64,000 nt of DNA from a phage, in NCBI GenBank assembly GCA_022143435.1, contig GCA_022143435.1_3941.1. One strand, written 5' to 3'. Shown here in pieces: positions 29,720 to 46,155 of this stretch. Both the position numbers and the translations under genes were made by a program. Each line of letters starts with the position of its first letter. Position 1 is the stretch's first letter. The notes beneath the pieces are model-generated. The model was not told where the DNA came from. It did no database searches and was given only the letters and a program-made list of their open reading frames with translations.

Positions 29720-30520
29720 TTAGTGCAGTTGCTCAGCAGACTCTTTTTCAGCCATAGCTGAGATTTGCTTCACAAAATCATCACCGAAGTTAATGCGTAG
29801 TTTCTCTTCAATGATTGAAGCACCAATGTTCACCAAAACATCATTGATTGCTTGCATACTAACGCCACCAGTCATTTCCTCAATGAACTCAATACTCACA
29901 CCCATCATCTGTGACAGTTGGATTAGTGCAACGATATTCATCATCGTAGATATAGCTGGAATCATCAGTGCAACTTTCACCTGAAGTGGTTCAATGTCAG
30001 CTACAGAGTCATTTTCAACAGCTTCTTCCAAAGACTCTTTAGTTTGCTGGATAATCTCTTTGATTCGTGGGTTTAATTCTTCTACGCCCCAATCAAGTTT
30101 TTCATATCGTGAAAGTTTCTCTTCCATACGCTTCTCAAGAACAGCCATAACAGCACTCGTTGATGAGATAAGCGTATCAATAATGAAATCAGTGTCCTTA
30201 GTCAGCAACAGTTCCTTATCTTCGTCTGACATCCTGATATAGTCATTCTTTTGCATTTCATAAAAAATGAACTCAGCAAGTGCATCAACACCAACCGCAA
30301 TAGATGCCAGAGCAAGTGTAGTGTCTGTCAACATCATATTAACCTGTTCTGCAAAAGCACCGTTATCAGACTTGTCTTCAGGCAAGTTATAGCTTGCAGG
30401 CATAAACTGTTCTGTGTAGTTGTTGCCACGAAGAATCATAGCCATGCTTTCTACGGCATTGATTAAGAATGCTTCATCAACACCTTTCTCTTCAAGCATC
30501 TTTTCTACATCGATATTCAT
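29720..30520 (-). CDS. Acidic early protein of unknown function
   Basis: Hand count ~50 Asp+Glu versus ~21 Lys+Arg in 266 aa; second gene of leftward early operon. Confidence 0.4.
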   Translation of the reverse strand: MNIDVEKMLEEKGVDEAFLINAVESMAMILRGNNYTEQFMPASYNLPEDKSDNGAFAEQVNMMLTDTTLALASIAVGVDALAEFIFYEMQKNDYIRMSDEDKELLLTKDTDFIIDTLISSTSAVMAVLEKRMEEKLSRYEKLDWGVEELNPRIKEIIQQTKESLEEAVENDSVADIEPLQVKVALMIPAISTMMNIVALIQLSQMMGVSIEFIEEMTGGVSMQAINDVLVNIGASIIEEKLRINFGDDFVKQISAMAEKESAEQLH

Positions 30521-30521
30521 A

Positions 30522-30944
30522 TTATTTCTCTCTCAGTTGGTTAAGTTTCTTTCTAGAACATTTTAAGTTTTCGGATGAAGAAAAGTCAAGTGTCTTTTCA
30601 GAACGTGGATAATAGTTCCTATCCCAAGAAGTTTCAACATCGTTAATCAGTGATGCTAGATTACACAGGTCTGTACCACTTTGCAACCTCTTTTTAAGAG
30701 AATCTAGTAAAGCAACTGTGTCTTTAGCTTTACGTCTCGCTGTAGCAACATCTTTCATATGCTCAAATACAGAGCATTTTAAGTCATCTTCATAGTCTTC
30801 AGACAACTCTATTTCATGTTGTATATCAACCATTCTCCTGTGATGGTGAGCATATTCCCGTTGAGCAGCAATGTCAAGTTCTTCCAACTTCTGCAAAGCT
30901 CTAACAAAGTCAGCTATGTCTGGGTGAACAAACATTTTCTGCAT
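30522..30944 (-). CDS. Hypothetical early protein
   Basis: First gene of the leftward block. Confidence 0.4.
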   Translation of the reverse strand: MQKMFVHPDIADFVRALQKLEELDIAAQREYAHHHRRMVDIQHEIELSEDYEDDLKCSVFEHMKDVATARRKAKDTVALLDSLKKRLQSGTDLCNLASLINDVETSWDRNYYPRSEKTLDFSSSENLKCSRKKLNQLREK

Positions 30945-31201
30945 GTAAGCCTCTTTTAAGTAGCTATTAAGTTTTAATCTTTTATCTTAACGTATTCTAT
31001 ACGTTATACTTTAAAGCTTTTTAAAAGCTATTAAATAATCTTTTAAGAGTTTTAAAGTATCTGTATAGTTAAACTGTTAAGTAACCTTTTAAGTAAAAAC
31101 CCACTTCGCAAAGATTAACACCTTGTCAAGTGCATTGTCAACTTGCTTTTTATAATTTTTTGCAGTAATGTATGAGGTTAATGATTTTAGAGGGAGTAAA
31201 A
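30945..31201. promoter_or_regulatory. AT-rich divergent intergenic region between leftward and rightward gene blocks; contains TTGTCA/TTGACA hexamers and TATAAT
   Basis: 257-bp non-coding gap; hexamers present but spacing non-canonical. Confidence 0.4.
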
Positions 31202-33901
31202 ATGGAAAACGTAGATTTTAAAAACTTACATTTAGTTGGTGATACAGAAACTGATGGTTTACTCCTTGAGTTCACTAAAGTGCACGTAATGGCTTTCGCA
31301 GACTATAAATCTGACGATGAAGAGCCGCCTGTATGGGTCTTTACAGATGAGCCTATCCTCGGTCACAAGTATACCAAGTATATTAAGGGTGGCTTACGTG
31401 AAGGTATTGAGTTTGCGTTAAAGGCAAAACGTCTTTGCATCCATAACGGTCTCGGTTATGACTGGTGGGTTTTCAATCACATTGCACCTGATTTATGGAA
31501 CTTTGATAATCCAAAGTGTAAACCGTGGAGTAATTTCTTTCAGGATTCTCTTATCCAGTCTCGTGTTCAGTGGATGGATAGACCAACTCCAAAGGGTTAT
31601 AAAGGTGCTCATGGTTTGGCTGCATGGGGTGCTCGCGTTGGTGTTCGTAAGCCAGAGATTGAGCATTGGGGTGTGTGGAATGCAGAAATCTTCACTCGTG
31701 TTGTAGAAGATATCCGTATTAACGCCAAAACTAAACGGGCACTTGATAACGAGTATCTCAAGCTTAAGAAGTGTGGTATAGACACTTATGAGACTTACAT
31801 GCGAGCTAAAGAAACATCTTTCTGGATGAGTCAACAGGCTATTAATGGCTGGAAAGCTGATAAAGAGCTTATGGAGTTCCATGTGAAGGAACTTGACAAA
31901 TTGACTAATGAGCTTGCTTCAGAGGTTGAACCACATCTACCTCCAACTATTAAGACCAAAGGTAAAGTCACTGGAGAAGAGTTTGCAAAAGCTTGGAATG
32001 AGTATGTTGAAGCATTCGGTCATGCAGATGGACTGAAGAGAATTACCAAGTACCCTAAGACAAAGTACCGTCAGCAGGTACGTAACGGTGAGATGCAGAC
32101 ATACGAAATCAAGCCATTTGGTAAGCCAACTACAAAGATTTTTAACATTGAAAAGAGAAATTGCTATACACCAACCAACTCTGTAACTGGTGAAGAGTAC
32201 AAGGAAGGTTTTGTAGCAATGAAGGATGCTCGTGCAATTTGCAATGAGTTGAACGCAAAGATTGGTAAGAAATGCAAAGACTGGAAGCCAGTAAAAACAG
32301 TCAAAACTGTGAAGTACTATAACAGTCATGTTGTTAACCACTTTGAACTTGAGTCAAGTCGCTACACAGGTTTGATTGATGCACCATATACACCAATTGA
32401 GTTCGAAGTTTCTCGCATGACTCAGGTAGCAGTTGTTAAAGACTACTTGAAATCAGTTGGTTGGATTCCAGATGACTGGAATTACAAGAAAGACTCAGAT
32501 GGTCGCCCTGTCAAAGTTTGTCGTTTCAAAGACAATAAAAAGATGATTACAAAGCATCCTAAGTGGCAGGAAATGGTTGAGCGGTGTGGTTTGAATTATG
32601 TTGAACATGAAGGTGTACAGTACATCGAGCATAACTGGTCTGTGAAGAAATACACAGATTTGCTTGAGCCTTGCTTAATCCGTACTTCACCAAAACTTAC
32701 TGAATCATCTTATGATACGATTGAAGGTGAGCTTGGACAGAAGATTGCTAAGTACTATACTTTGATGCACAGACGCAGAACTATTGAGAACTCAAAGGAT
32801 GATGAAAAAGGTTGGTTGAACCAGATTCGTCCTGATGGTCGCCTTAGTGCTGGCGCAATGGTGTTTGGTACTTCAACTGGACGTATGACACAATATGGTA
32901 TTGTAAACGTACCGTCTGGTGCTGCTGTCTATGGGGAACCAATGAGGGCAGTGTGGATTTGTGAGGAAGGTACTAACGTTGTCTCTGTAGATATGAACTC
33001 AGCCCAGCTAGTTCTTCTTTGTAACTTTATGGGTGATAAAGAGTTCACCAAAGCGGTAACGCAAGGTAAAGAAGAGATTGAGTTTATTCGTCAAGAAGAT
33101 GGACGCTATTACTGCAAACATTTTGATGAGTACCTCAACCCAGAGATTGATAAGTACCTTCGCTATGACTCTGAGAATGACCTGTACGTTGTCTATTCAG
33201 GGACTGATGCACATACACTGAACAGTATCTACTTTAGCTTGAACGATGAGCAGGACATCTTGACTTGTCGAGCTACTCAGGATGAGAATCTTCTTCATGA
33301 GATTAGCAAAGGTCGTAAGAAAGCTAAGAATGGTATCTATGCACTACTGTTTGGTGCAGGTGATGAGAAGTTTGCTAAAACTATTAAGGCAGCCACTACT
33401 CAGGAAGGTGCATTAACTAAACAGACTTACTTTGTGCGTTTGCCAAAGATTAAGAAACTATTAGATAACTTGGAAGCTGACTACAAAGCAACTAAAAAGG
33501 CACTTGAAGAGGTGTTTGGTAAGACCGCTGCAATCTCTAAAGGGGGTTTTGTAAAGGTTGCTGGAGCTTGGTTGTGGTGTAAATCTCCACATAAGTTGTT
33601 GAATTATTTGCTCATGGGTTCGGAAAGTCAGATTCAGAACGAGGCAATTAACCTTGCTTGCCGTCGTATGATTGACGAAGGTTTGATGAAGTTGAACGGT
33701 CGCAAACCAGCTATAGGTGCTCGTTTATTGTGCTCCTATCACGACGAGACAAGTTGGGAATGTCCAGAAAGTATGACGGCAGAGGTGAAGGCTGTCACTG
33801 ATTGGTATTACGGGCAAGCCTCTAAGAACTTAGGACTAAAGAGTGAAACACTGGTAACTGGTACTGGTAAGGTTGGTAAGTCGTGGTTGGAAGTGCATTA
33901 A
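31172..33901 (+). CDS. DNA polymerase, family A with 3'-5' exonuclease domain; probable start at ATG 31202
   Basis: Exo I motif VGDTETDGL; ~900 aa; RBS AGGGAG upstream of 31202. Confidence 0.9.
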   Translation: MRLMILEGVKMENVDFKNLHLVGDTETDGLLLEFTKVHVMAFADYKSDDEEPPVWVFTDEPILGHKYTKYIKGGLREGIEFALKAKRLCIHNGLGYDWWVFNHIAPDLWNFDNPKCKPWSNFFQDSLIQSRVQWMDRPTPKGYKGAHGLAAWGARVGVRKPEIEHWGVWNAEIFTRVVEDIRINAKTKRALDNEYLKLKKCGIDTYETYMRAKETSFWMSQQAINGWKADKELMEFHVKELDKLTNELASEVEPHLPPTIKTKGKVTGEEFAKAWNEYVEAFGHADGLKRITKYPKTKYRQQVRNGEMQTYEIKPFGKPTTKIFNIEKRNCYTPTNSVTGEEYKEGFVAMKDARAICNELNAKIGKKCKDWKPVKTVKTVKYYNSHVVNHFELESSRYTGLIDAPYTPIEFEVSRMTQVAVVKDYLKSVGWIPDDWNYKKDSDGRPVKVCRFKDNKKMITKHPKWQEMVERCGLNYVEHEGVQYIEHNWSVKKYTDLLEPCLIRTSPKLTESSYDTIEGELGQKIAKYYTLMHRRRTIENSKDDEKGWLNQIRPDGRLSAGAMVFGTSTGRMTQYGIVNVPSGAAVYGEPMRAVWICEEGTNVVSVDMNSAQLVLLCNFMGDKEFTKAVTQGKEEIEFIRQEDGRYYCKHFDEYLNPEIDKYLRYDSENDLYVVYSGTDAHTLNSIYFSLNDEQDILTCRATQDENLLHEISKGRKKAKNGIYALLFGAGDEKFAKTIKAATTQEGALTKQTYFVRLPKIKKLLDNLEADYKATKKALEEVFGKTAAISKGGFVKVAGAWLWCKSPHKLLNYLLMGSESQIQNEAINLACRRMIDEGLMKLNGRKPAIGARLLCSYHDETSWECPESMTAEVKAVTDWYYGQASKNLGLKSETLVTGTGKVGKSWLEVH

Positions 33902-34439
33902 TGGTGACAAAATGATTACACAAGAACGTTTAAAGGAACTACTACACTATGACCCCGAAACAGGGGTCTTTACTTGGCTTCGTAGGGAGGGTGACTCAAG
34001 GGCTGTTAAAGTCTTTAATAGTCGGTACGCAGGACAGGTAGCGGGGAGCATCCAGATTGACTCAACTGGTCATAATCAGATTACTATCTATTTTGACAAG
34101 AAAGCACATAAAGCGCACAGACTCGCATGGCTGTACGTGTATGGTAGGCTGCCGAAAGGTGTTATTGACCATGTTAATGGGGACTCCCTTGATAACAGGA
34201 TTGTAAACTTAAGAGAAGCAGATGACTACCAAAGTGCTTGGAATAAAAGCAAACTATCCACCAATAAATCAGGCTATAAGGGTGTAAGCCTGAAGAAGAA
34301 GTCTGGTAGGTGGGTTGCGCAAATAAGCTATAAAGGTAAAAAGATGTCATTAGGCTACTATGACACACCAGAAGAGGCCCATAAAGCTTACTGTGAAGCT
34401 GCTGTAAAACTCCACGGAGAGTTTGCAAAACTAAGTTGA
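33873..34439 (+). CDS. HNH homing endonuclease with AP2 domain (paralog of 23810-24334)
   Basis: Shared LHYDPETGVFTWL N-terminus, HNH core (IDHVNGDSLDN) and AP2-like SGYKGVSLKKKSGRWVAQI. Confidence 0.6.
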   Translation: MVSRGWKCINGDKMITQERLKELLHYDPETGVFTWLRREGDSRAVKVFNSRYAGQVAGSIQIDSTGHNQITIYFDKKAHKAHRLAWLYVYGRLPKGVIDHVNGDSLDNRIVNLREADDYQSAWNKSKLSTNKSGYKGVSLKKKSGRWVAQISYKGKKMSLGYYDTPEEAHKAYCEAAVKLHGEFAKLS

Positions 34440-34490
34440 CAAGGTGCTCAGGGAAGAGTACCTTATACTATATCTTGTATAGGAGGGCTT

Positions 34491-34700
34491 ATGAGCCACC
34501 GTGGAAGAACCCATGCAGCGATGATGAAAGGTGCTTCAAAGGAGACTATCAAAAATCGTAAGCAGAAGTTGTTTGAGAGGATGAACAGGTTAATTGACAA
34601 TTCATCTCTTTCAGGTTCTGAGAAGGTTTTCTTGAAAGGTAATCTGAAAAGCATTGCACAAGAACTTATTGACATTGAGTATTGGAGACATCAAAAATGA
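34491..34700 (+). CDS. Small hypothetical protein
   Basis: ORF. Confidence 0.35.
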   Translation: MSHRGRTHAAMMKGASKETIKNRKQKLFERMNRLIDNSSLSGSEKVFLKGNLKSIAQELIDIEYWRHQK

Positions 34701-34909
34701 CACTTGCAGACGTTATTCAGCAACTTCATGATAACTGCTACACTCCAGAGTTAATTCAGGAGATGTCCATTGTAGTCATGCCTAGCAAGTTCGTAAAAAC
34801 CTTTAACAACGACGCTTTAAGGTCTACACACATCCTTATCGTTGACGGTAAGATTGCAAAAGACCGTACTGGAGTACTCAAAGGTGAACGTATTGACATT
34901 AACTTTTAA
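34682..34909 (+). CDS. Small hypothetical protein
   Basis: ORF. Confidence 0.35.
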   Translation: METSKMTLADVIQQLHDNCYTPELIQEMSIVVMPSKFVKTFNNDALRSTHILIVDGKIAKDRTGVLKGERIDINF

Positions 34910-34926
34910 GTATTGGAGAAATCAAA

Positions 34927-35139
34927 ATGACTTATGAAGAAGCTGTTGAAGCAATGAAGCAGGGTAAGAAAGTTCGTAACGAGAACTTCACACCTGATGA
35001 GTTCTTTGAAATGAAAGACGGAAAGATTGTCTGTGAAATGGGTTACCCAATGGCTAAATGGTATCGTGGACTTGATTGGCAGAAAACTGGATGGAGTGTT
35101 GTAAAGGACTCTCCAAAAGCTTCTGATTTATTCTTTTAA
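34927..35139 (+). CDS. Small hypothetical protein
   Basis: ORF. Confidence 0.35.
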   Translation: MTYEEAVEAMKQGKKVRNENFTPDEFFEMKDGKIVCEMGYPMAKWYRGLDWQKTGWSVVKDSPKASDLFF

Positions 35140-35148
35140 GGAAATACT

Positions 35149-35355
35149 ATGCAAGTTTTAGTAAACTATATCTACCGTTATGATGTTATCCACTCAACCA
35201 ATACAGTTGCTCAACGCAACCCTATTGTACCACGAGAAGGTGAGTGGGTTCGTATTGATGGTTGGATTTATACTGTAGAGAATGTTATCCACAAATTTGA
35301 TGTGGGTGATGATACTCAAGTGATTGATGTAGAGATTGGTGGGAAGAGAAAATGA
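35149..35355 (+). CDS. Small hypothetical protein
   Basis: ORF. Confidence 0.35.
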   Translation: MQVLVNYIYRYDVIHSTNTVAQRNPIVPREGEWVRIDGWIYTVENVIHKFDVGDDTQVIDVEIGGKRK

Positions 35356-36455
35356 CAATTCTGTACAAACAAAATAAAGATGGCTCTTTTAACGTCTGGT
35401 CATGCGTTGCTGTAGGTGACAAAGTGGTTACCACGTATGGCAAAGAAAATGGCAAGATGATGTTTGAAGAGTACACAGCAGAACCAAAAAACATCGGCAA
35501 AAAGAATGAGCGTAACGCTGAACAGCAAGCTCTCTTTGAAGTTGCTGCTAAATACAAGAAGCAGGTTGACCGTAAAGGCTATGCTTATTCAAAATCTGCT
35601 GCACAGGAAGTTGAGAAGGTTGGTGTACAGCTTGCACATGATGCTTCCAAGGTTAGTCATGCAAAGTATCTGAAATTCCCTGCTGATGCTCAACCAAAAC
35701 TTGACGGTGTTCGTTGCAGGATTTCTCGTCATCAAAGTCTTGGTGGAATGTTTACAGCTTATTCTCGTGAGAATACGGTTTACAACATCCCCGAAGAATT
35801 GATTCCAGATATAACTATGATGCTCAAACTTCATAAAGATGTGGATGAGTTTGACGGTGAGATTTATGCTCATGGTTGGGACTTGGAAGATATTGTATCC
35901 ATGATTAAGAATGCTGACAATCCAGACCGTCACCTACTTAAATTCTACTGGTATGATATCTGCGATAATTCTAAATCTTGGCCTGAGCGTCGTGAAATCA
36001 TTGATAACTCACCAATCGTTGAACTCGGTGATGCTTGCAGGGTTGTACCTGTTCAAACTATCCGTGTTAACTCTTGGGAAGAGTTCGACAAAGCCCATGA
36101 TAATTGGGTTAAGCTGAAGTTTGAAGGGGCTATGTACCGTTCAATCTCTGAAGAATCTTTCTACGAGTGTAGTCACCGTTCATACTTCTTAATCAAGCAT
36201 AAGAAGATGCACACTGAAGAGTTTAAAGTAACTGGTGTGAAAACTGATAAACGTGGTCATGGTAAGTTTGTTGTAGAGACTCTTCCTAACGTCTTTGTAG
36301 ATGTTTCATGGAAAACTACCCATGAGAAGAAGAAGTATCTTGCTGAACATCCTGAAGAGTTTATCGGGAAACCTTTGACGGTTCAGTTCCAGAAGATGAC
36401 TCGTAGGGGGTCTTTACAGTTCCCTGTTGGGTTAGTTATCAGAGATTATGAATAA
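35352..36455 (+). CDS. ATP-dependent DNA ligase
   Basis: Motif I KLDGVR (KxDG adenylation lysine). Confidence 0.8.
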   Translation: MTILYKQNKDGSFNVWSCVAVGDKVVTTYGKENGKMMFEEYTAEPKNIGKKNERNAEQQALFEVAAKYKKQVDRKGYAYSKSAAQEVEKVGVQLAHDASKVSHAKYLKFPADAQPKLDGVRCRISRHQSLGGMFTAYSRENTVYNIPEELIPDITMMLKLHKDVDEFDGEIYAHGWDLEDIVSMIKNADNPDRHLLKFYWYDICDNSKSWPERREIIDNSPIVELGDACRVVPVQTIRVNSWEEFDKAHDNWVKLKFEGAMYRSISEESFYECSHRSYFLIKHKKMHTEEFKVTGVKTDKRGHGKFVVETLPNVFVDVSWKTTHEKKKYLAEHPEEFIGKPLTVQFQKMTRRGSLQFPVGLVIRDYE

Positions 36456-36461
36456 AAGTTG

Positions 36462-36489
36462 TTGACATAGAAAATTTGGTGAGTATACT
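36462..36489 (+). promoter_or_regulatory. Sigma70-like promoter TTGACA-16 bp-TATACT
   Basis: Hexamers and spacing read in sequence. Confidence 0.5.
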
Positions 36490-36519
36490 GAGCAGCATAA
36501 ACCAACGGGTACTCACCAG

Positions 36520-36770
36520 CATCACTTAAGAGCCTTTCTAAGAGGGTTTTTAAGTGAGGTTCGGTATGGTACAGTAGGCTCTGGCTTGGTATGGTTTGGT
36601 GATGTTCGGTGTGGTACGGCGGTGTAAGGTATGGTATGGGTAGTTAGTCTCAGCTACATTAAAATGAGACTTACCTTTTTAAAAGGTCTTTAAAAGGGTC
36701 TTTTAATAAGGTATGGTGAGGTAGGGTTAGGCGAGGTCAGGTTTGGTAAGGTATGGGTGGATGGTAGCAG
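36520..36770 (+). repeat. Composite non-coding repeat, copy A: hairpin, (NGGTN)n pentamer tract, hairpin, 2x AAGGTCTTTTAA, (NGGTN)n tract
   Basis: Aligns with 38045-38255; see findings. Confidence 0.8.
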
Positions 36771-36846
36771 CCACGTTAAAAATCTACCAAGTTTCTAAAG
36801 AGTCTTCTGTTGAGGGTTCTTTACAAACAACTTAACAATCAACTAA

Positions 36847-37452
<606 letters not shown>

Positions 37453-37454
37453 TT

Positions 37455-37895
37455 ATGAATACAAAAGCATTAGCAGCAAAGTTTAGTTACGGTGACACTG
37501 TATCACATTCTGAGATGGACACCTTCTTAGGTATTGTGAAGCCAACTTATCAAGGTGACATTGTTAAGTACGAAGATGAAATGAAGGCTTATGCACTTAC
37601 ACGTCTAAACCGACTTGAGAAGTTTATTGAAAAGCTTCTTAAAGAAGAGAAGATTTATCTGGTTGCTTCAATGGGTGTTGGTTATCGTGTGGTTGAACCT
37701 AAGCATCAAGCAACTATTGCAAAACGTAAAATGTCTGGTAAGATTGGTCGTGCTTTAAAGCAAGCCACTCAAGCGATTGAGAATGTGAATACTATGGCAC
37801 TTAGTCATCAAGAACGTTCACGACTGATTGAACAGCAAAACCATTTAGCTGCTATGAAAGCTAACATTAACAAGCAACGTAGAAAACCTTTCTAA
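37455..37895 (+). CDS. Hypothetical protein
   Basis: ORF; no recognised motif. Confidence 0.45.
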   Translation: MNTKALAAKFSYGDTVSHSEMDTFLGIVKPTYQGDIVKYEDEMKAYALTRLNRLEKFIEKLLKEEKIYLVASMGVGYRVVEPKHQATIAKRKMSGKIGRALKQATQAIENVNTMALSHQERSRLIEQQNHLAAMKANINKQRRKPF

Positions 37896-37903
37896 GTTGA
37901 CTA

Positions 37904-37930
37904 GGAAGCCTCTTCGGAGGCTCCTTTTTA
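37904..37930 (+). terminator. Rho-independent terminator (GAAGCCTC-TTCG-GAGGCTCC then TTTTT)
   Basis: Inverted repeat plus T-run. Confidence 0.6.
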
Positions 37931-38255
37931 AAAGGTCTTTTAAGAAGGTCTTTTAATGAGGTAAGGTGCGGTCTGGTAAGGCATGGTATGGTTGGGTGAG
38001 GTGAGGTATGGGTAGTTAATCGGAGCTACATTAAAATTCGATTACATCACTTAAAAGTCTTCTAAGAGGATTTTTAAGTGATGTTCGGTAGGGTCTGGTA
38101 GGGTGAGGTATGGGTAGTTAGTCTCAGCTACATTAAAATGAGACTTACCTTTTTAAAATGTCTTTAAAAGGGTCTTTTAACAAGGTATTGTATGGTGTAG
38201 TTTGGTTAGGTATGGTTAGGTGTGGTAAGGTAGGGTATGGAAGGATGGCAGTAGC
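37930..38255 (+). repeat. Composite non-coding repeat, copy B (one partial plus one full unit)
   Basis: Same element order as copy A; see findings. Confidence 0.8.
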
Positions 38256-38291
38256 CTTATAAAAAATCTGCCAAATAAGCTATAAAATCTG

Positions 38292-38327
38292 TTGACAAGT
38301 CAGGTGTTATAGCTTATTTTTATACTC
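38292..38327 (+). promoter_or_regulatory. Promoter-like element TTGACA...TATACT with non-canonical 24-bp spacing
   Basis: Hexamers read in sequence; spacing atypical. Confidence 0.3.
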
Positions 38328-38364
38328 AATGTAATACAAAATTTAATATAACTTTGAGGTCATT

Positions 38365-38748
38365 ATGAAAAAGATTTTATTAGCTGCTGCAATGGTTATG
38401 GCAATGAATTTACCAGTCAATGCAACAGAACTTCCAAATGTGGACTTATCAGGTGTTCCAGAAGACACTTGCCAGATTGTAAAAGGTGTTGCTCTAGCTA
38501 ATGGTGAGCTACTTAAACCAATCTCTGAAGAGTCTTTGACAGAGATGACTGATAAAGTAACTGACTATCAGTATCGTGTTCTTGCAGAGTATTTCCTGCA
38601 ATCTGCAAACATTAAAGAGAAGCACCATGAAGATATTGATGTACAGGCTATGCTAAATCATCGTATCCAGTTTAAAGAAGATTTGATGCAAAAAGCTATG
38701 TATGGTGTTGAGTATTTCTTAGAAAACAGAAGCTGCACAGGTATTTGA
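38365..38748 (+). CDS. Secreted/periplasmic protein of unknown function
   Basis: N-terminal signal peptide. Confidence 0.45.
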   Translation: MKKILLAAAMVMAMNLPVNATELPNVDLSGVPEDTCQIVKGVALANGELLKPISEESLTEMTDKVTDYQYRVLAEYFLQSANIKEKHHEDIDVQAMLNHRIQFKEDLMQKAMYGVEYFLENRSCTGI

Positions 38749-38749
38749 T

Positions 38750-38962
38750 ATGGCTCTTAAAAAGTTACATCCCAGAAGTGGTTATGGTAAGATAGTCGAT
38801 GATACAGACGGCTTTACAGTATTTACAGTCATCTGTCAAGATGATTCACAGATTGAAAAGGCTCTTGATGATTATCTTAACGATGAACGTGAAAAGGTTA
38901 GGGCTACAAACATAGATTCATTAATTGACACTTCACGTAAACGGAAGAAGAAAGATGAATGA
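38750..38962 (+). CDS. Small hypothetical protein
   Basis: ORF. Confidence 0.35.
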   Translation: MALKKLHPRSGYGKIVDDTDGFTVFTVICQDDSQIEKALDDYLNDEREKVRATNIDSLIDTSRKRKKKDE

Positions 38963-39254
38963 AGTTTTTGACCCTTATGCTCCACAAGATGATTGGGAGG
39001 CTGACAGAGAGGCTGAAATGGAGAGTTATGTTTGTCCAATGGATGTAGACGAAATGAGAGATTTCGTTGCACACCGTTTTAAGAAAGAGATTAAATCCAG
39101 AGGTCTTTCTCAAGAGCAAGTTGCTAAAATTTGTGGTATCTCTCAGGCTCGCGTATCCAACATAATCCACCTCACTGGTAATGTCTCCCTTGAGTATATG
39201 TTGGAAGTATGTGAAAAATTTGGTGTTAATTTCAATTTAAGGCTGGCAGATTAA
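38925..39254 (+). CDS. XRE-family helix-turn-helix DNA-binding protein (likely start 38955)
   Basis: SQEQVAKICGISQARVSNI HTH segment. Confidence 0.5.
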   Translation: MTLHVNGRRKMNEVFDPYAPQDDWEADREAEMESYVCPMDVDEMRDFVAHRFKKEIKSRGLSQEQVAKICGISQARVSNIIHLTGNVSLEYMLEVCEKFGVNFNLRLAD

Positions 39255-39255
39255 T

Positions 39256-39615
39256 ATGAAACGTGAAAACATTATCCACTCTGAAAACTTCGCATTAGGC
39301 TTTTATGGTGTACCTACTCACCTTGAAAAGTATTATGGTGTGAAGATTCTCTCCAATCTCATTATGGCTTACAAAGATGGTAAGATTAAGCATACTGAGA
39401 AGAAACGTGTCATGGGCTATATGGCTGTAGGTTCAGCAATCTCGAACATTAAGCTGGAAACAACTAGCAGTCAGATTGTGAAAGACCACTTCATCAAAGA
39501 GCTTTACCAGAATCTTGATGGTGTAGATGTTCAGGCTGTTTGGCTGGATGTTGACGGTCATAACTACACGAGTTTTGTTTTCAAAAACGACGACATTAAG
39601 TGTCTGTTCCCATAA
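39256..39615 (+). CDS. Hypothetical protein
   Basis: ORF. Confidence 0.4.
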   Translation: MKRENIIHSENFALGFYGVPTHLEKYYGVKILSNLIMAYKDGKIKHTEKKRVMGYMAVGSAISNIKLETTSSQIVKDHFIKELYQNLDGVDVQAVWLDVDGHNYTSFVFKNDDIKCLFP

Positions 39616-39628
39616 TAGGTGATTAACT

Positions 39629-40144
39629 ATGATTGATATCTACTTACAAGATGCTCATGCAGATTTCCTTAAAACGATGCTTAAAAAGTTTATGGCTTCA
39701 CAGGGTGATAATGAAGCATCTTTTAAAATAGTCACATGTGGCGACGAAGCTGGTTTTGTTGAGATTGAACATGAAGATACTGGAAAGACTGTTTGTAAGT
39801 TACCTGATAGCATGTTCTCTAACACGTTCTTAACAAAGACTAGTATAAATGTTAAGCTTGTGCCTCAGATTGAAACATACTCTGGTACAGATTACCCTAA
39901 AGGTTTTAAGTCACTGATGAAGTACTTCTTAGATGACTTTGTGGGTAATCTTCTGAGGGAGGTAAAAGAAAGTCGTACAGTGTTGACTGTAGAGAACATG
40001 GGAGGAACTATCAAGGTCACTTCTGACTGTTTTGTTATGAGCCTCTTCGACTTCGTTCCTAAGAACTTTGATGGTATTCTGGATGAAGAAGATGACTGTG
40101 TAGACTTTATATTGGTTCTTGAGCCAGTTTTTGAGGTTAAATAG
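39629..40144 (+). CDS. Hypothetical protein
   Basis: ORF. Confidence 0.4.
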   Translation: MIDIYLQDAHADFLKTMLKKFMASQGDNEASFKIVTCGDEAGFVEIEHEDTGKTVCKLPDSMFSNTFLTKTSINVKLVPQIETYSGTDYPKGFKSLMKYFLDDFVGNLLREVKESRTVLTVENMGGTIKVTSDCFVMSLFDFVPKNFDGILDEEDDCVDFILVLEPVFEVK

Positions 40145-40405
40145 ATGAAAATTGAACACTGCTATGAGTCTGACGGAACACCTATACGTTGTCCACATTG
40201 TGGGTGTACAGACTTGCAAGGTGAAGTTCATGTGATTGTTAATGGTCATATAGCTGAAGAAAGTACTACATGTGTTGGTTGTGGTGAGCAACTATCATTC
40301 TGGGCTTATGGTTCATACCAACCCTCTCCACATTTTATCTACCATCGTAGTAAAGTTGTGAAGAGTGTCATCAACTGGTTCATTAAGAAAGGGTTTACAA
40401 AATGA
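40145..40405 (+). CDS. Small zinc-ribbon protein
   Basis: CPHCGC...CVGCG. Confidence 0.4.
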   Translation: MKIEHCYESDGTPIRCPHCGCTDLQGEVHVIVNGHIAEESTTCVGCGEQLSFWAYGSYQPSPHFIYHRSKVVKSVINWFIKKGFTK

Positions 40406-40947
40406 TTAAGCTAATATTTGCAAGTGGTGAAAACGGTGAATTTGGTACTCCAACTGGTATGCCGTGGCCTCGACATAAACAGGACATGCAAGAGTTTAAG
40501 AGACTCACTAAAAACAACTTAGTAGTGATGGGGAATGAGACTTTCAAGACTCTGGGTAGTAAACCTTTACCAGAACGTGCAAACCTCATCTTAACAAACT
40601 CTGTACCATACTTAGGCATAGACTTTGGCAAAGATGAGGTAATGTATGCTAAGGCCAGCAAAGAATCCTTTGGAGCATTTTTGAAGTATCTCGATAGCTC
40701 TATTGATGAAGATATCTTTGTAATTGGTGGTGCAGGTGTCCTTGTCAATGCTTTACCATATGCTGGTGTAGTTTTCCATACAGTTTTCCATAAAGTTACT
40801 GAAGAGGCCACTGTGTATTTACCTTTTGAAAACTTCTTTGAGAAGCTGTATGATAACCGTGTATTTACAAAGGTACAGTCAAAACCCTCAGATGATGGTA
40901 AAGCAACCTTTGAGATTTATGTTCCACAAGTAAAAGGACACTTTTGA
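40402..40947 (+). CDS. Dihydrofolate reductase
   Basis: N-terminal MIKLIFASGENGEFGTPTGMPW DHFR motif; adjacent to thymidylate synthase. Confidence 0.8.
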   Translation: MIKLIFASGENGEFGTPTGMPWPRHKQDMQEFKRLTKNNLVVMGNETFKTLGSKPLPERANLILTNSVPYLGIDFGKDEVMYAKASKESFGAFLKYLDSSIDEDIFVIGGAGVLVNALPYAGVVFHTVFHKVTEEATVYLPFENFFEKLYDNRVFTKVQSKPSDDGKATFEIYVPQVKGHF

Positions 40948-40948
40948 T

Positions 40949-41848
40949 ATGTCACAAGCTGATTTGAGTTACAAAAATATCCTGAACCATGTTTTATCCG
41001 TTGGTGAACTGCGTACTACACGAACTGGGGATGTTATCTCTGCATTTGCTCCACCACAGTTTCGTTTTGATATGAGAACTGGTTTCCCACTCTTAACATC
41101 TAAACAGGTGTTTACACGGCAAGTTATTGGGGAAGCTTTATGGTTCCTGAATGGTGAGAATAAACTTGGTGAACTCCGTTATCGCACTTGGGGTGAAAAT
41201 GATGGAGAACGTTGGACTATCTGGTCAGATGATTTTAAACGTTGGTTAAGCTCTAACTATTCTTCTGAGCAAGACTGGTTAGAAGATGCAGGTGGGAGAA
41301 TCTACGGGGTTCAGTGGAGAAACTTTGAAGGTCATAATGGTTGTGTTGTAGACCAGTTAGAAACCTTAGTAACGAAGATGAAAGGTGATATCACAGACCG
41401 CTACATGCTTGTTAATGCTTGGAATGCAGCAGATATTGCAGCAAACTCGATGGCTTTAGCACCTTGTCATGTTCTGTTTCAGATTTATATCACCAACGAA
41501 GGTGAAGTAGATTTGCAATGGTATCAGCGTTCTGTAGACACATTTTTAGGACTTCCGTTTAACATTGCATCTTATGGTTTTATTCTGGAAGTTCTTTGTA
41601 AGATGACTGGATACACCCCACGGTACTTGATAGGTGTCTTTGGGGATACTCAGATTTATCAGAACCATATGAAGCAGGTTTATGAACTGATAAACAATGA
41701 AGAGTTCCATGCACCTACTTTTGAGATTGGTGTGCAGCTTAACACTTTAAGTGACTTAAAACATCTTACTGCAAGTGATTTTATTGGTGGCATTAACAAC
41801 TACCAACATGCAGGGAAGATTGAAGCACCTCTGTCAGTAGGCAAGTAA
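40949..41848 (+). CDS. thyA: Thymidylate synthase (ThyA type)
   Basis: Assigned from overall ThyA-like N-terminal sequence pattern, ~300 aa length, and DHFR immediately upstream. Confidence 0.85.
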   Translation: MSQADLSYKNILNHVLSVGELRTTRTGDVISAFAPPQFRFDMRTGFPLLTSKQVFTRQVIGEALWFLNGENKLGELRYRTWGENDGERWTIWSDDFKRWLSSNYSSEQDWLEDAGGRIYGVQWRNFEGHNGCVVDQLETLVTKMKGDITDRYMLVNAWNAADIAANSMALAPCHVLFQIYITNEGEVDLQWYQRSVDTFLGLPFNIASYGFILEVLCKMTGYTPRYLIGVFGDTQIYQNHMKQVYELINNEEFHAPTFEIGVQLNTLSDLKHLTASDFIGGINNYQHAGKIEAPLSVGK

Positions 41849-41851
41849 AAC

Positions 41852-41880
41852 AAAAAAGGCTCCCGTAAAAAGGAGCCTTA
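41852..41880. terminator. Bidirectional rho-independent terminator (AAGGCTCC-loop-GGAGCCTT) between convergent thyA and structural block
   Basis: Inverted repeat flanked by T-runs on both strands. Confidence 0.6.
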
Positions 41881-41884
41881 AACT

Positions 41885-42256
41885 TTATTTTTCAGTATTC
41901 TTTGTGTTCTTTTCAGTAATAGCTTGGAGGGCTGATACTGATTGAGCCAGATTGTTCACACTGTCAGAGAATTTATCAAGAGTTTTGGTAAGTTTTGCGT
42001 TTTCACCCTTAACATTCTCTAACTGAACTTTCTGGTTCTCCATCCCTAGCTGAATCAGTCTCATGTCAGACTGTAAATCACGAATAGCTGAATAGTTACT
42101 TTTGGAATAATTATCTAGCTGCTGTAACTTTGTTGTGACAGACACTTCTTGTTTACCACTTGAAACTTGCATAGTGGTATACATCCCAATAACACTAAAA
42201 ATACCAACTACAATTGCACCAATATTATTTTTAAAAGCTTCCTCTAGCCACTTCAT
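41885..42256 (-). CDS. Membrane-anchored coiled-coil protein
   Basis: N-terminal TM helix then helical region. Confidence 0.35.
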   Translation of the reverse strand: MKWLEEAFKNNIGAIVVGIFSVIGMYTTMQVSSGKQEVSVTTKLQQLDNYSKSNYSAIRDLQSDMRLIQLGMENQKVQLENVKGENAKLTKTLDKFSDSVNNLAQSVSALQAITEKNTKNTEK

Positions 42257-42451
42257 TTATTTCTCCCCCTTAAAAGCTTTTTCTAAGTTATCTACGAACT
42301 CATCATCAATAGGTGTGTCTGTTTTACTCGCAAGGTATCTTGCAAGCTTAAAGAACACTTTCTCAATCATGTATTCACTTAGAAGGGATAAAATGAGTTT
42401 CCAGAAGAAGCTACCTAGATTTTTTAGAAGAATTGCTAGGATTGTAGGCAT
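42257..42451 (-). CDS. Small membrane protein (possible holin-like)
   Basis: Hydrophobic N-terminus, charged C-terminus. Confidence 0.3.
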   Translation of the reverse strand: MPTILAILLKNLGSFFWKLILSLLSEYMIEKVFFKLARYLASKTDTPIDDEFVDNLEKAFKGEK

Positions 42452-42530
42452 TTAATCACCTCATCAGCCAAGATGGTGAGAATACCCATAAAGAATATTA
42501 ACACCATCTTAACAATCAGTCAACAAGGGA

Positions 42531-44921
42531 TTAAGCAGTTCTTACCCAAGCCATTAACTTGTAGAACTGGTTAGTAACACTAAATGCTGAACCAGAACCT
42601 GTACCACCAGTGTTACCACTAACTGTATGGGTGTGAGCACCAATACCTACAGAGTGGGTGTGAGCACCAGTGTTACTTGTAGTACCAGACCATGTGTGTG
42701 TATGGTTACCAGTTGTGTTAGTGTTAGGGAACTTGTTATCAGTTCTGTCAAGCCAGTCAAGAGTTCTCGTCTTGTTATTGCTAACAGTTGTATAACCGTA
42801 CTGAGCATCACCACCATTAACCAATAGTAGACCTAAGTGGTGAGCGTGGTTACCAGCAGCACTTGTTGTACCACTTACAGAGTGAGTATGACCACCAGTG
42901 CTATTAGTGCTCTTCGTACCATAATCAAAAGATGAAGTGGTAGCAGAGAAACTATGGGTGTGTGATGGTAAGTTACCAACAGCTAACGTCACAGAATCTG
43001 AACCGCCAGTTGTAGCAACATCTGAACCGTTTGCTGCTGCAATCCTGATAGTTCTACCAACACCATTGTTAAGGTACGTCCAAGTTAGACCAGGAAGTGC
43101 CGTATTAGGGTCAACATTACTGTTAAACCACGTTACAATGCCTACTGGATAGATTTTGTTAAGGTCTGTAGAGTCACTGATTGCTTCTGCAATCTTCTGG
43201 TCAGTTTCTGCTTTAGTATATGCACCGATATCTGAGGGTGCTGGTTTATCTTGGTCTGTATAGATTTTAGCCCATGTATTCTCAAAACCATACCCATCTC
43301 GTGCTGTCCTGTACCAAATACCACCATTCCTGTAGCTAAACTTCAACTGTGCAGTTGGTGTTGAGCCACCACCGATATACATCTGATAAACCAGATGTGT
43401 TGAACCACCAGATTCCCTTGTAACATTATACAAACCAGTTCTAGCATTCCAAGCAATACCATCCCCACCACCAGCCTCTGTACCATTGCCAGTAGAGATA
43501 GCATACATGTACCTATAGTCTGCGGTAGATTGCGTGTAATATCTAGCATCTAAGTTAGCCCAATCAGAAGGTTGAACTTGACCAGTAATGGCTAAATTCT
43601 TATTCGCAACAATTGCTGATGGTTCAAGGGCAATTTGAGTACCAGAGTAACTATTGTTTAAGGTTACCACATTAGAGTTTGGGCCACCTACACCTAACCA
43701 CCACCTCGATACGTTCGCGGTATCCACACCACGGATATATAGTGGTTGCCCCTGTGTCAAGTTTCTTAATACTAAACCTTCGTTATTTGCTACGATAGTC
43801 TGCACATTCACAAATGTGTTAGCAACATTAAGTTTAGGCAGGTTACTCAAAGTTGCGGCTGGGATATATCTAGAGTCAATGTTAGTCCAATCAGAGGGTT
43901 GAACTTGACCAGTGATTTTTACACTCTTATTAAATGTAGCACCAGACGAGTTTAAGACAATTGAGGTGTTGCCCTTGTAATCGTAAAATGTGATATTGTC
44001 ATTTGCATCACCTTTACCGATATACCACAGATTATTGTTTTCAACATCTTTTGCTAGGATGAACAAAGACTCATTAACAGCTTTATTTTTTAGCATGATA
44101 GCAGCAGCATTAGAGCTGACACTAACATAGTTGCTGAAGGTGTTTAAACCACTAAAAGTGTTATTAGCAGTTAACTGTGCAAACCTCTGATTAGCTGCTG
44201 TCTGAGTAAAATATCTAGCATCTAAGTTAGAGAAGTCAGATGGTTGAACTTGACCAGTGATTCTTAGGGTTTTACTAATAGCAGCAACACTAGACAGATT
44301 AACTTCACAACCTGTCTTGTAGTTGTGGATAATAACATTGTCATTCACTGAACCATTACCTACATACCACCTATTAGCACCAGTGCTATCCTGACCTCTA
44401 ATATACAACGGTGAGTTCTCAGAAGAGTTTTTTAGTCTAATAGCTTCACCATTTGCTTGAATAACCTGTTGGAAGGTAAAGATGTTATTTGCAGCTAATC
44501 TTGAGTATCTTGCATCATTCTCTTCATTAGTTCTCATCCCAAGTTCATTAGGACTTGGCTTATTCAGAGTATGATAAACAGTTGCCGACCTTGAAGCATC
44601 TGCAATAGTTAGTTTAAGGCCATTTGCATTGATTTTAAAAGTCTTTAAAACATCCCCAATAGTAATCTCAGAAGAGCCTGTTGGGTTAAAGACTACCTTA
44701 CCACCATAAAGTAACTTAACAATCCCTAAATCACCCGTCATAGTACTACCAGCAATCTGAACAAATCTTTCAAGTTTAAAAGATGCTAAGAAATCTTGAT
44801 AGGTCATTCGACGGTCTTCATCGCCAAGCATTTCAGGTCTCTTTTTAACTCTGACATGAAGAAGGTCATCTGAACGGATTGTATCGATTGAGTTTAATTC
44901 ACTCAACTTGTAATCTGCCAT
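42531..44921 (-). CDS. Tail fibre protein with three internal ~110-aa repeats and C-terminal His-X-His box domain
   Basis: Triplicated [16 protein letters not shown] segments; C-terminal HTHS/HAHH/HTHT repeats. Confidence 0.7.
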
Positions 44922-44933
44922 TATAAATTTTCC

Positions 44934-44960
44934 TCTTAAAAGGGGCTATCAAGCCCCTGT
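44934..44960 (-). terminator. Hairpin AGGGGCT-ATCA-AGCCCCT downstream of tail fibre gene
   Basis: Inverted repeat with T-run on minus strand. Confidence 0.5.
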
Positions 44961-44967
44961 AAAGAAA

Positions 44968-46155
44968 TTAAGCTGTTCTCTGCCATACATACAGTACGAA
45001 GGATGGCTGCTCAATGTTGAAAGCTTGTCCACCACCAACACTGTTAGTATTCCCGCTATGTGTATGCTCAGAAGAAGAAACTGTCACAGTACCATTGTGC
45101 GTATGTGAACCAATACCAACCGTATGACTGTGAGCACCGATACCTACAGAGTGAGAATGGTCACCAGTTGTGTTAGTAGTAACACTGAAAGAGTGAGTGT
45201 GTGCACCAGCTACTTCACAGACAGCATCTGCTGAGTACCATGATTGGTCATTTCTTGTAGACCAAACCATTGCAGGTCTTTCCGATAGGCCACCACCTGC
45301 TTCATATGTCAATCTGTGGTTGTGAGCACCAGCAGAACTTGTTGACCCACTACCAACATGGTTATGGTTACCAGTCGTGTTAGTGGTTTTAGTTCCATAG
45401 TCAAAAGAGTTAGTAGTCTTAGTTCCATAATCAAAAGCTGAAATTGACACCGTTGCATTATGAGTATGACCACCACCACTAAGAGACACAGAGTGAGAGT
45501 GTTGAGGCATGTTATTAACTGACAAAGTGACAGTTGAAGCACCAAATACAGAACCTGCTGGTCTTGTGTCAGAGTCATAACCAACCAATGCTCTACCCTT
45601 TGAAACTAACTCCCAAGTACCTCCACAAATTAAATATGTAGAAGGGTTTGCAGAGTTCATGGAAAGATGGATAGTACCTACTGGATAGGAAGCCTGAACA
45701 GCCTTGTACAAGTTATTTACTGCTCTTGCTGTAGCATACTTATCTGCATCTTCGTTATAAAGGTTAGATGTTGTCCAGTTCTGAACATTACTCAATCCTA
45801 CCTGTGCCTTAGTTGTATTATGTGGGTTGCTCTTGTCCTGAATATGCTGTTGAACAAGATTATTAACCTCTTCTGAAGACATAATCTGTAGATTTGCTCT
45901 TGCCTGAGCTACATTAGTAACGTCTGATAAGTTATTTGCAGCAACTAACTGAAGAGCATTGATAACGTTATCTAAACCAATTTGTGTTTTAGTAACACCA
46001 TGAGGGTTATTTCTTAGGCTTGAGTGTGGAGCAAGTAATTGCTCAAGAGTACATCTCTTATCCTCAATACCCTGCTTAAGATGGAAGATATCACTAAGGT
46101 CAATTGGTAAGGCTGCTTGAGGCAAGGCACTAATTTGAATTTCACCTACCGCCAT
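44968..46155 (-). CDS. Tail fibre protein (second, paralogous C-terminal His-box domain)
   Basis: NPHGVTKTQIGLDNV / NPHNTTKAQVGLSNV fibre repeats; C-terminal HSHS/HTHN/HNHV repeats. Confidence 0.7.
   Translation of the reverse strand: MAVGEIQISALPQAALPIDLSDIFHLKQGIEDKRCTLEQLLAPHSSLRNNPHGVTKTQIGLDNVINALQLVAANNLSDVTNVAQARANLQIMSSEEVNNLVQQHIQDKSNPHNTTKAQVGLSNVQNWTTSNLYNEDADKYATARAVNNLYKAVQASYPVGTIHLSMNSANPSTYLICGGTWELVSKGRALVGYDSDTRPAGSVFGASTVTLSVNNMPQHSHSVSLSGGGHTHNATVSISAFDYGTKTTNSFDYGTKTTNTTGNHNHVGSGSTSSAGAHNHRLTYEAGGGLSERPAMVWSTRNDQSWYSADAVCEVAGAHTHSFSVTTNTTGDHSHSVGIGAHSHTVGIGSHTHNGTVTVSSSEHTHSGNTNSVGGGQAFNIEQPSFVLYVWQRTA

Follow-up and report, generated by a model that had tools for sequence, protein, structure and literature searches.

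A stretch of phage DNA 64,000 nucleotides (nt) in length (GenBank assembly GCA_022143435.1, contig GCA_022143435.1_3941.1; hereafter 'the window') carries five tracts in which GGY recurs every 5 nt, and these can be assigned with high confidence as the variable regions of five vrRNA genes in a SUSP1-clade locus of type II VIPR (Viral Interference Programmable Repeat). The element is an already known one and not of a new kind, being a member of the clade in which VIPR was described; the statement of an initial annotation of this DNA, that no phage element with such a signature was known, is out of date, since GGY/NN vrRNAs appear in preprints of April to June 2026. The key to the element, which was absent from that annotation, is a gene for a RAMP-fold protein flanked by the tracts. 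The tracts occupy two intergenic regions on either side of two small open reading frames (ORFs), downstream of a DNA ligase gene, and the order of the locus is promoter, vrRNA1, vrRNA2, vipr, vap1, terminator, vrRNA3, vrRNA4 and vrRNA5.

VIPR was described in 2026 in two bioRxiv preprints (10.64898/2026.04.26.720920 and 10.64898/2026.04.26.720927), which give its parts as vipr (encoding an early-branching RAMP protein), a vap accessory gene, and vrRNAs composed of 9-16 YNNGG repeats and a conserved tail, the tail being a pseudoknot in the SUSP1 clade. According to the same two sources, the vrRNAs of SUSP1 appear in small-RNA sequencing as discrete RNAs of ~100 nt and co-purify with Vipr; their target is double-stranded DNA, in which one base is skipped per repeat (xNN), and the outcome of targeting is transcriptional silencing. 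The preprints further report that reprogramming of the NN bases changes target specificity and that the natural targets of the clade lie mostly in a satellite phage of Escherichia coli genomes; the guides of a VIPR system are expected to match such targets at 80% or more of NN positions and to have no self-targets. Cryo-electron microscopy reported in the second of them (10.64898/2026.04.26.720927) places one Vipr protomer on each repeat, with G1, G2 and Y3 flipped out and held by H17, D177, R138, W178, R179 and other residues, and with the NN bases presented for pairing.

The periodicity of the tracts was examined across the whole window and on both strands by a search for chains of GGT at a 5-nt step (at least four units, with one miss tolerated). 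Exactly five places were returned, at 36588-36615, 36710-36752, 37960-38007, 38087-38109 and 38184-38236, every one of them on the + strand; the - strand yielded no such chain. Fourier power of the guanine indicator at period 5 reached 3.2-4.6 in four of the tracts (shuffle mean 0.25, shuffle maximum 1.7-2.4; none of 2000 shuffles as high) and 1.65 in the short fourth tract, a value reached by 2 of 2000 shuffles, and the best 60-nt windows for this signal in a scan of the entire window all lie inside 36500-38250. Tandem Repeats Finder reports parts of the same tracts, which are poor in C, as repeats of period 5, 10, 15 and 20. The 5-nt period claimed by the initial annotation, for which it had proposed such a Fourier analysis, is thus real, and the tracts are non-coding, as it had stated.

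When the tracts are read in an NNGGY register, and a last NNGG that runs into the tail is counted, their refined extents (all on the + strand) are 36556-36640 for vrRNA1 (17 units, with degenerate GGY in units 4-6, 10, 13 and 14), 36708-36757 for vrRNA2 (10 units), 37958-38012 for vrRNA3 (11 units), 38080-38114 for vrRNA4 (7 units) and 38182-38241 for vrRNA5 (12 units). These are the places that the initial annotation had given, while its counts of 18, 12, 12, 7 and 14 units overran slightly into the 3' tails.

The composition of the repeat unit was analyzed using 82 vrRNA instances, which were gathered from the window and from 18 related loci and represent 67 unique tracts. Across the unique tracts the two N positions hold only 0.05 and 0.10 bits of information, whereas the G, G and Y positions hold 1.30, 1.88 and 1.50 bits, respectively; the Y position is T in 89% and C in 11% of units, and a purine in none of 738 (window and relatives). 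The NN bases are hypervariable between loci that are otherwise 97-99% identical, and they turn over while Vipr and Vap remain 96-100% identical across the close loci. The initial annotation was therefore right to propose selection on the GGT core alongside variation at the other two bases; its accompanying idea that those flanking bases merely drift is wrong, because their order carries information, matching satellite-phage DNA under a skip of one nucleotide in a manner that permuted orders fail to reproduce (see below).

The first of the two ORFs between the tracts, vipr (36865-37452, + strand), encodes a 195-residue RAMP-fold protein which, according to the preprints, polymerizes on GGY repeats. 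Its product is identical at 190 of 195 positions to the 'SUSP1 Vipr protein' of PDB entry 36pp, which a profile search of PDB sequences matched at an E value of 2.3e-81, and its structure model displays a Cas7/Csm3/Cmr4-like RAMP fold, so that a gene for a minimal RAMP-fold protein does stand beside the repeats, as in other VIPR loci. All of the residues that hold G1, G2 and Y3 or contact DNA (H17, D177, R138, W178, R179, E71, M72, C173, K33, K82, K88, G87 and R39) are found at the same positions in the Vipr of the window; at position 175 the window protein and the PDB sequence agree in having V, where the text of the preprint names T175. The second ORF, vap1 (37455-37895, + strand), encodes a VIPR accessory protein of 146 residues that is 99.3% identical to the product of the ORF beside vipr in phiSUSP1 (KT454805.2, 28034-28471), and thereby supplies the adjacent vap gene of such a locus. 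Vap1 was found in 118 phage records, in all of them at an identity of at least 95%; a word-based search for Vap homologues returned close relatives only. Searches of Pfam and PADLOC assigned neither Vipr nor Vap to a family, and PHROGs places them only in the 'unknown function' families 4652 and 5926.

Each tract forms part of a composite unit that consists of a conserved leader, the tract itself and a tail of ~40 nt. The tails fall into four families. Those of vrRNA1 (36638-36680) and vrRNA4 (38112-38154) belong to family A, the former an H-type pseudoknot with stem S1 formed by GTAG/CTAC, stem S2 by AGTCTC/GAGACT, and an A-rich loop L3, and both followed by a T-run. The tail of vrRNA2 (36755-36791) represents family B (S1 GTGG/CCAC, S2 TGGTAG/CTACCA), that of vrRNA3 (38010-38045) family D (S1 GTAG/CTAC, S2 TAATCG/CGATTA), and that of vrRNA5 (38239-38275) family C (S1 AAGG/CCTT, S2 TGGCAG/CTGCCA); all five lie on the + strand. 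In an alignment of 23 distinct tails from the four families (alignment A2), S1 (4 base pairs) and S2 (6-7 base pairs) are retained throughout despite the different sequences, the share of paired cells in the pseudoknot is 92.5%, and both sides have changed in 9 of 11 pairs; when the 3' partners were slid by 1-3 columns as a control, pairing dropped to 28-48%. A conserved 3' tail that folds as a pseudoknot, which is characteristic of vrRNAs in this clade, is accordingly present in all five units.

Further evidence for a guide function derives from the sequences that the NN bases match. A BLAST search of tract 2 and its tail against 5426 complete E. coli genomes returned 153 chromosomal, unannotated matches, and satellite-related sequence is present in 482 of those genomes (~9%). 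One such satellite-phage island (L033, 10485-22071, in E. coli JML285, NZ_AP024114.1) is ~11.6 kb in length and is inserted in a DUF72 gene next to yecD; the islands examined (L033-L044) integrate either at that site or between tonB and yciI. Besides small hypothetical proteins, they encode a serine recombinase, a phage baseplate protein and a tape-measure protein, and these are features that the preprint gives for the satellite; an HNH endonuclease or a Dam-like methylase is carried in addition by some variants.

The guides of the window (vr1 to vr5, for vrRNA1 to vrRNA5) were then compared with 12 island variants (135 kb), with each GGY replaced by 0-3 wildcards and with 200 permuted guides as a control. 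With a single wildcard, vr1 matched at 29/34 NN positions (best score with 0, 2 or 3 wildcards, 21/34), vr3 at 19/22 (17/22) and vr5 at 23/24 (18/24), and for none of the three was any of the 200 permuted guides as good; skip rules other than one nucleotide reached 77% at most. These three guides thus display the matching under a 1-nt skip that distinguishes VIPR. The sites of vr1 lie at L037 8447-8496 (29/34) and L033 16820-16869 (28/34), the latter within a small ORF in which the skipped bases fall at codon position 3; those of vr3 at L038 7004-7035 (19/22) and L034 7355 (18/22); and those of vr5 at L039 9195-9229 (23/24), L033 18432-18466 and L036 9417-9451 (22/24 each). The vr5 site is located ~30 nt upstream of the first gene in the leftward operon of the satellite, a position consistent with transcriptional silencing. 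Across the clade, 23 of 57 unique guides matched the first five islands at 85% or more of NN positions with a skip of one, and none of the 57 did so with skips of 0, 2 or 3; the skipped base fell at codon position 3 (the wobble position) in 10 of 11 intragenic matches. No self-target of the guides was found in the window.

The islands also contain a vrRNA of their own. At about 19975-20090 of L033 (and at the same position in L034-L037, near 11049) there are 11 NNGGY units followed by a tail identical to phage family B. A tblastn search of the islands found no vipr or vap, and this orphan vrRNA presumably uses the Vipr of the helper phage; its guide matched nothing convincingly in the window or in the five islands sampled first, the best match (18/22) lying outside the island.

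The distribution of the locus supports the same assignment. The region 36400-38400 matches 236 phage records, the best at 94% identity, and the block of replication genes in this Felix O1-like phage (Felixounavirus) is ~95% identical to those of phages dune, LF82P5 and Mushroom. A search of IMG/VR with the ORF at 36865-37452 returned 18 close loci and six distant ones (36-39% identity). The tracts are present in every close locus, where they lie on the same strand as the vipr homologue is read, so that the occurrence in related genomes by which the initial annotation had proposed to judge them was indeed found. The distant contigs (L023-L028), whose unrelated backbones are richer in G+C, carry period-5 tracts of GG-pyrimidine beside the gene, again always on the sense strand, with GGT in L028 and GGC in L025 and L027, and with the tracts placed before, between and after the vipr homologue and its partner ORF. 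A homologue from Rhodococcus (L029; 41-42% identity) is likewise accompanied by five GGC tracts after the gene pair. Because this linkage holds across phyla, the tracts and a vipr-type gene form one module.

In the distant loci L025, L027 and L028 the tracts terminate in GG plus T5-6, directly ahead of the ribosome-binding site of the following gene, and no pseudoknot of the SUSP1 type is visible in these three; the positional partner ORF in L028 gave no significant BLASTP match to Vap (E 3.3). In the Rhodococcus globerulus sequence (GCA_037145555.1; L029 5137-5650), (NNGGC)n tracts are separated by a repeated element of ~60 nt in which a T-arm-like hairpin (GGCGG-TTCGATT-CCGCC) is nested in an acceptor-like stem (GTCCGG/CCGGAC), and a similar element is found at L027 3130-3190. 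ARAGORN made two odd 'tRNA-???' calls in that part of L029; the element has no Rfam match, and its fold energy is not above that of shuffles. It may be a tRNA-like processing signal, unlike the hammerhead-separated arrays of the preprint.

Within public records of related phages, the vrRNA regions have been labelled in several ways: as 'DR_4' repeats (wV8, EU877232), as a 'possible binding site of StbAB' (KhF3, KT184315), as 'repeat_region' (dune, MN850636) and as 'terminator' (ASO1B, MZ726792), with vipr and vap recorded as hypothetical proteins. The genome papers on Felix O1 and UAB_Phi87 mention other repeats and not these tracts.

The locus of the window corresponds closely to the type II VIPR of SUSP1, with which it shares Vipr (97% identical), Vap1 (99%), the YNNGG code, the tail that forms a pseudoknot, an arrangement in which vrRNAs flank the gene pair on either side, the satellite-phage target family and the 1-nt skip. 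The two differ in that SUSP1 (locus L020) has one upstream and three downstream vrRNAs, whereas this phage has two and three, and in their guide sequences, this phage having one guide of 7 units and one of 17. The resemblance to Class 1 CRISPR effector backbones (Cas7, Csm3 and Cmr4) is more remote, with 9-18% sequence identity to Vipr: those backbones follow a 6-nt period in which five bases pair, whereas Vipr follows a period of 5 nt in which three bases are sequestered and two pair. A VIPR locus also differs from Class 1 CRISPR in lacking a CRISPR array, cas1/cas2 and the acquisition of spacers, and in a guide that is interrupted by protein-bound GGY; in the window there is no repeat-spacer array (only 5-nt units), the neighbours are vipr and vap alone, and PADLOC returned nothing.

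Each vrRNA of this phage comprises a short leader, 7-17 NNGGY units and a pseudoknot tail of ~40 nt. By the mechanism that the preprints describe, protomers of Vipr, a minimal Cas7-like RAMP, would polymerize along it, one per repeat, each flipping out and holding G-G-Y and presenting NN; the NN dinucleotides would pair with a DNA strand of which every third base is skipped, and the resulting R-loop would block transcription. With guides that point at a satellite-phage island of ~11 kb, the locus would serve as the helper phage's weapon against its parasite.

Several other explanations of the tracts were weighed against assignment to VIPR. The initial annotation had suggested a (GGUNN)n sponge or decoy RNA that titrates an RNA-binding protein, as CsrB and RsmZ titrate CsrA, with uninformative NN bases. 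Part of that suggestion comes close to the reported structure, since a protein does bind every spaced GGU (one Vipr protomer per GGY in cryo-electron microscopy), the tracts are multi-copy and poor in C, and CsrB and RsmZ are, like the vrRNAs, non-coding RNAs with many short G-rich motifs bound by protein. The titrating role does not stand: CsrB and RsmZ carry GGA in hairpin loops at irregular spacing, whereas in vrRNAs the motifs are exactly spaced and a DNA target is specified by the bases between them; the window lacks both GGA-in-hairpin-loop motifs and a CsrA-type partner, the place of the latter being taken by a RAMP protein; and no Rfam match with an E value of 1 or less was found in 30000-45000 apart from an unrelated, weak match to STnc100. 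Moreover, a sponge requires neither NN bases that are hypervariable between loci 97-99% identical nor an NN order that is informative under one specific spacing rule and fails when permuted, and the change in target specificity that the preprints report upon reprogramming of NN would exclude it. The RNA is better regarded as a guide, and a sponge is very improbable. An equally low probability can be given to a protein-binding array in duplex DNA (iterons, an origin or a partition site), which was also raised in the initial annotation and is suggested by the StbAB note in KT184315. The direct repeats annotated here in the KhF3 and wV8 records are in its favour, as are the repeated A/T-rich leader motifs of 11-13 base pairs (TTTTAAAAGGTC) and the near-palindromes beside the tracts; it is opposed by the strict strand asymmetry of the tracts, which lie on the vipr sense strand in every locus, by the compensatory changes in the tails, which indicate a folded single strand, and by the 5-base-pair period itself, which would put each GGT on the face of B-DNA opposite to that of the one before. 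The genes next to the tracts are those for Vipr and Vap and include none for a partition or initiator protein, and small-RNA sequencing of SUSP1, as the preprints report it, shows these regions as discrete RNAs.

Whether as DNA or as RNA, the runs of GG-N3-GG-N3 could also form two-tetrad G-quadruplexes at which polymerases would pause or transcription would end. In favour of this are the agreement of the sequence with G2N3 repeats, the scarcity of C in the tracts and, in distant loci, the T-runs in which the tracts end just ahead of the ribosome-binding site of the next gene. A quadruplex, however, needs no pyrimidine after GG, and yet a purine never occurs there in the 738 units; it leaves the NN-target matches and the obligate linkage to a RAMP gene unexplained, and in the solved complexes, as described, the guanines are held by protein side chains. 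We consider it the least probable of the alternatives. The view that the regions are only terminators or inter-operon spacers (as annotated in ASO1B), with repeats that are slippage junk, has a chance as slim as that of the sponge: the family A tails do end in a stem and T-run called by a terminator predictor, with hairpin energy above background (z score -2.5), and this would account for the tails at most and not for the tracts, since junk would not hold GGY at 1.3-1.9 bits while NN turns over, nor co-occur with vipr homologues across phyla, nor match the satellite. Each of these four explanations is at odds with at least two of the following: the need for a pyrimidine after GG, the information carried by the order of NN, the obligate association with a RAMP gene, and the covariation of the tails. 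A TRAP-like ring binder, a single-stranded-DNA-annealing protein, Shine-Dalgarno-like standby sites, antisense rut sites and a type III toxin-antitoxin RNA were also considered, and were abandoned when the adjacent ORF was recognized as vipr and the NN code was seen to match the satellite. TRAP binds (G/U)AG repeats in the Bacillus trp leader, trinucleotides that are separated by spacers of 2-3 nt and bound by one subunit each, with a period of ~5 nt; it differs in forming a closed 11-mer ring of a different fold, in acting through attenuation control and in having uninformative spacers, and no TRAP homologue is present here.

A number of points weigh against the assignment to VIPR or against parts of it. 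Two guides had no significant target in the 12 islands: vr2 matched at 16/20 with one wildcard and 15/20 with the others (36 of 200 permuted guides as good), and the 7-unit vr4 at 11/14 and 12/14 (200 of 200 as good). The 17 units of vr1, several of them with a degenerate GGY, exceed the 9-16 quoted for the clade, which together with vr4 puts two of the five tracts outside that range; the set is taken here as YNNGG repeats all the same. There is no Rfam family for these RNAs and hence no independent curated model against which to score them, and an Rfam scan of 30000-45000 and of the six distant loci returned nothing relevant. The single-sequence model of Vap1 (an N-terminal helix-helix-helix-beta-hairpin) is of low confidence (predicted local distance difference test score, 68), and a Foldseek search of it against the PDB gave no significant match, the best weak ones being winged-helix regulators at an E value of 0.23 or worse. 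Support for the mechanism comes from two preprints by a single group and from one PDB entry. Finally, the statistics of the tracts, the identification of Vipr and Vap, the contrast in conservation between GGY and NN, the tail covariation and the satellite matches were all obtained for this phage itself, whereas its expression of ~100-nt RNAs, their processing, their loading with Vipr, the structure of the filament and the silencing of targets would be as in SUSP1, from which they are carried over by analogy.

A predicted sigma-70-like promoter (TTGACA-N16-TATACT, 11/12; 36462-36489, + strand) lies just upstream of the first vrRNA unit, its function being suggested by the consensus match alone; this promoter, the terminator-like tails and the T-runs are the only expression signals visible, and which promoter drives each unit is something that we infer. 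An intrinsic terminator (AGCCTCTTCGGAGGCT plus a T-run; 37907-37930, + strand) follows vap1. The leaders are of two types. Type i is a strong hairpin (TCACTTAAGAG...TTTTTAAGTGA) that lies directly 5' of tract 1 (36519-36560, + strand) and recurs as a design before tract 4 (inverted repeat I3, 38044-38084); as RNA the first of these folds at -19.6 kcal/mol (z score -5.3; none of 200 shuffles as stable), the type is kept in all related loci, and it is a candidate processing site, terminator or promoter. Type ii, as read from the sequence (TTTTTAAAAGGTCTTTAAAAGGGTCTTTTAAT, with the motif TTTTTAAAAGGTCTTTAAnAGGGTCTTTTAAT), is found at 36676-36707 (+ strand), is kept in relatives, and is repeated in design at 37926-37957 and 38150-38181; the TTAAAA-N17-TTTAAT within these leaders may be a weak promoter.

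Beyond the last vrRNA, an inverted repeat of 19 nt with 89% complementarity (AAATAAGCTATAAAATCTG / CAGGTGTTATAGCTTATTT; 38273-38319) brackets the -35 hexamer of a promoter at 38292-38320 that precedes the next gene (38365-38748), an operator-like arrangement. ARAGORN found no tRNA in the window. The match to the small RNA STnc100 (41847-41931, - strand) scored 23.4 bits against a gathering score of 47, with an E value of 0.14, and is probably due to chance.

Comparison of guides between phages yielded additional observations on their inheritance. Nearly the same guide as vr3 (37958-38012) is found at L007 3594 and at L013-L015 3870, with a tail of family D in the window and of family C in L013, and nearly the same guide as vr5 (38182-38241) at L009 3745 and L018 3736; from phage to phage, near-identical guides thus differ in their place in the array and in the family of the tail that follows them, which suggests recombination in the conserved leaders and tails as the means by which guide cassettes are exchanged. 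The guide vr4 (38080-38114) equals a 10-unit guide in an 88,403-bp Felixounavirus contig (L011, 2197-2241) less four internal units, whose loss took place between two CTGGY-AGGGT repeats, and the full L011 guide matches the tape-measure gene of the satellite at 20/20 (L037 5354); as judged from these sequences, vr4 is probably a slippage-truncated copy of such a guide, that is, a decayed guide. Whether guide-cassette shuffling, unit slippage, a satellite orphan vrRNA that borrows the Vipr of its helper, and tRNA-like processing in Rhodococcus together go beyond both preprints is doubtful, and we put this forward only tentatively.

VIPR represents a minimal form of RNA-guided DNA recognition, in which a 20-kDa protein and a guide of less than 100 nt employ a non-contiguous code, and it has been proposed to be older than CRISPR. 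In more than 100 deposited genomes of Felix O1-like phages, five 'repeat regions' or 'terminators' and two 'hypothetical proteins' can now be given names. Phages of this group are used for typing, biocontrol and therapy, and their guides predict E. coli strains that carry their satellite.

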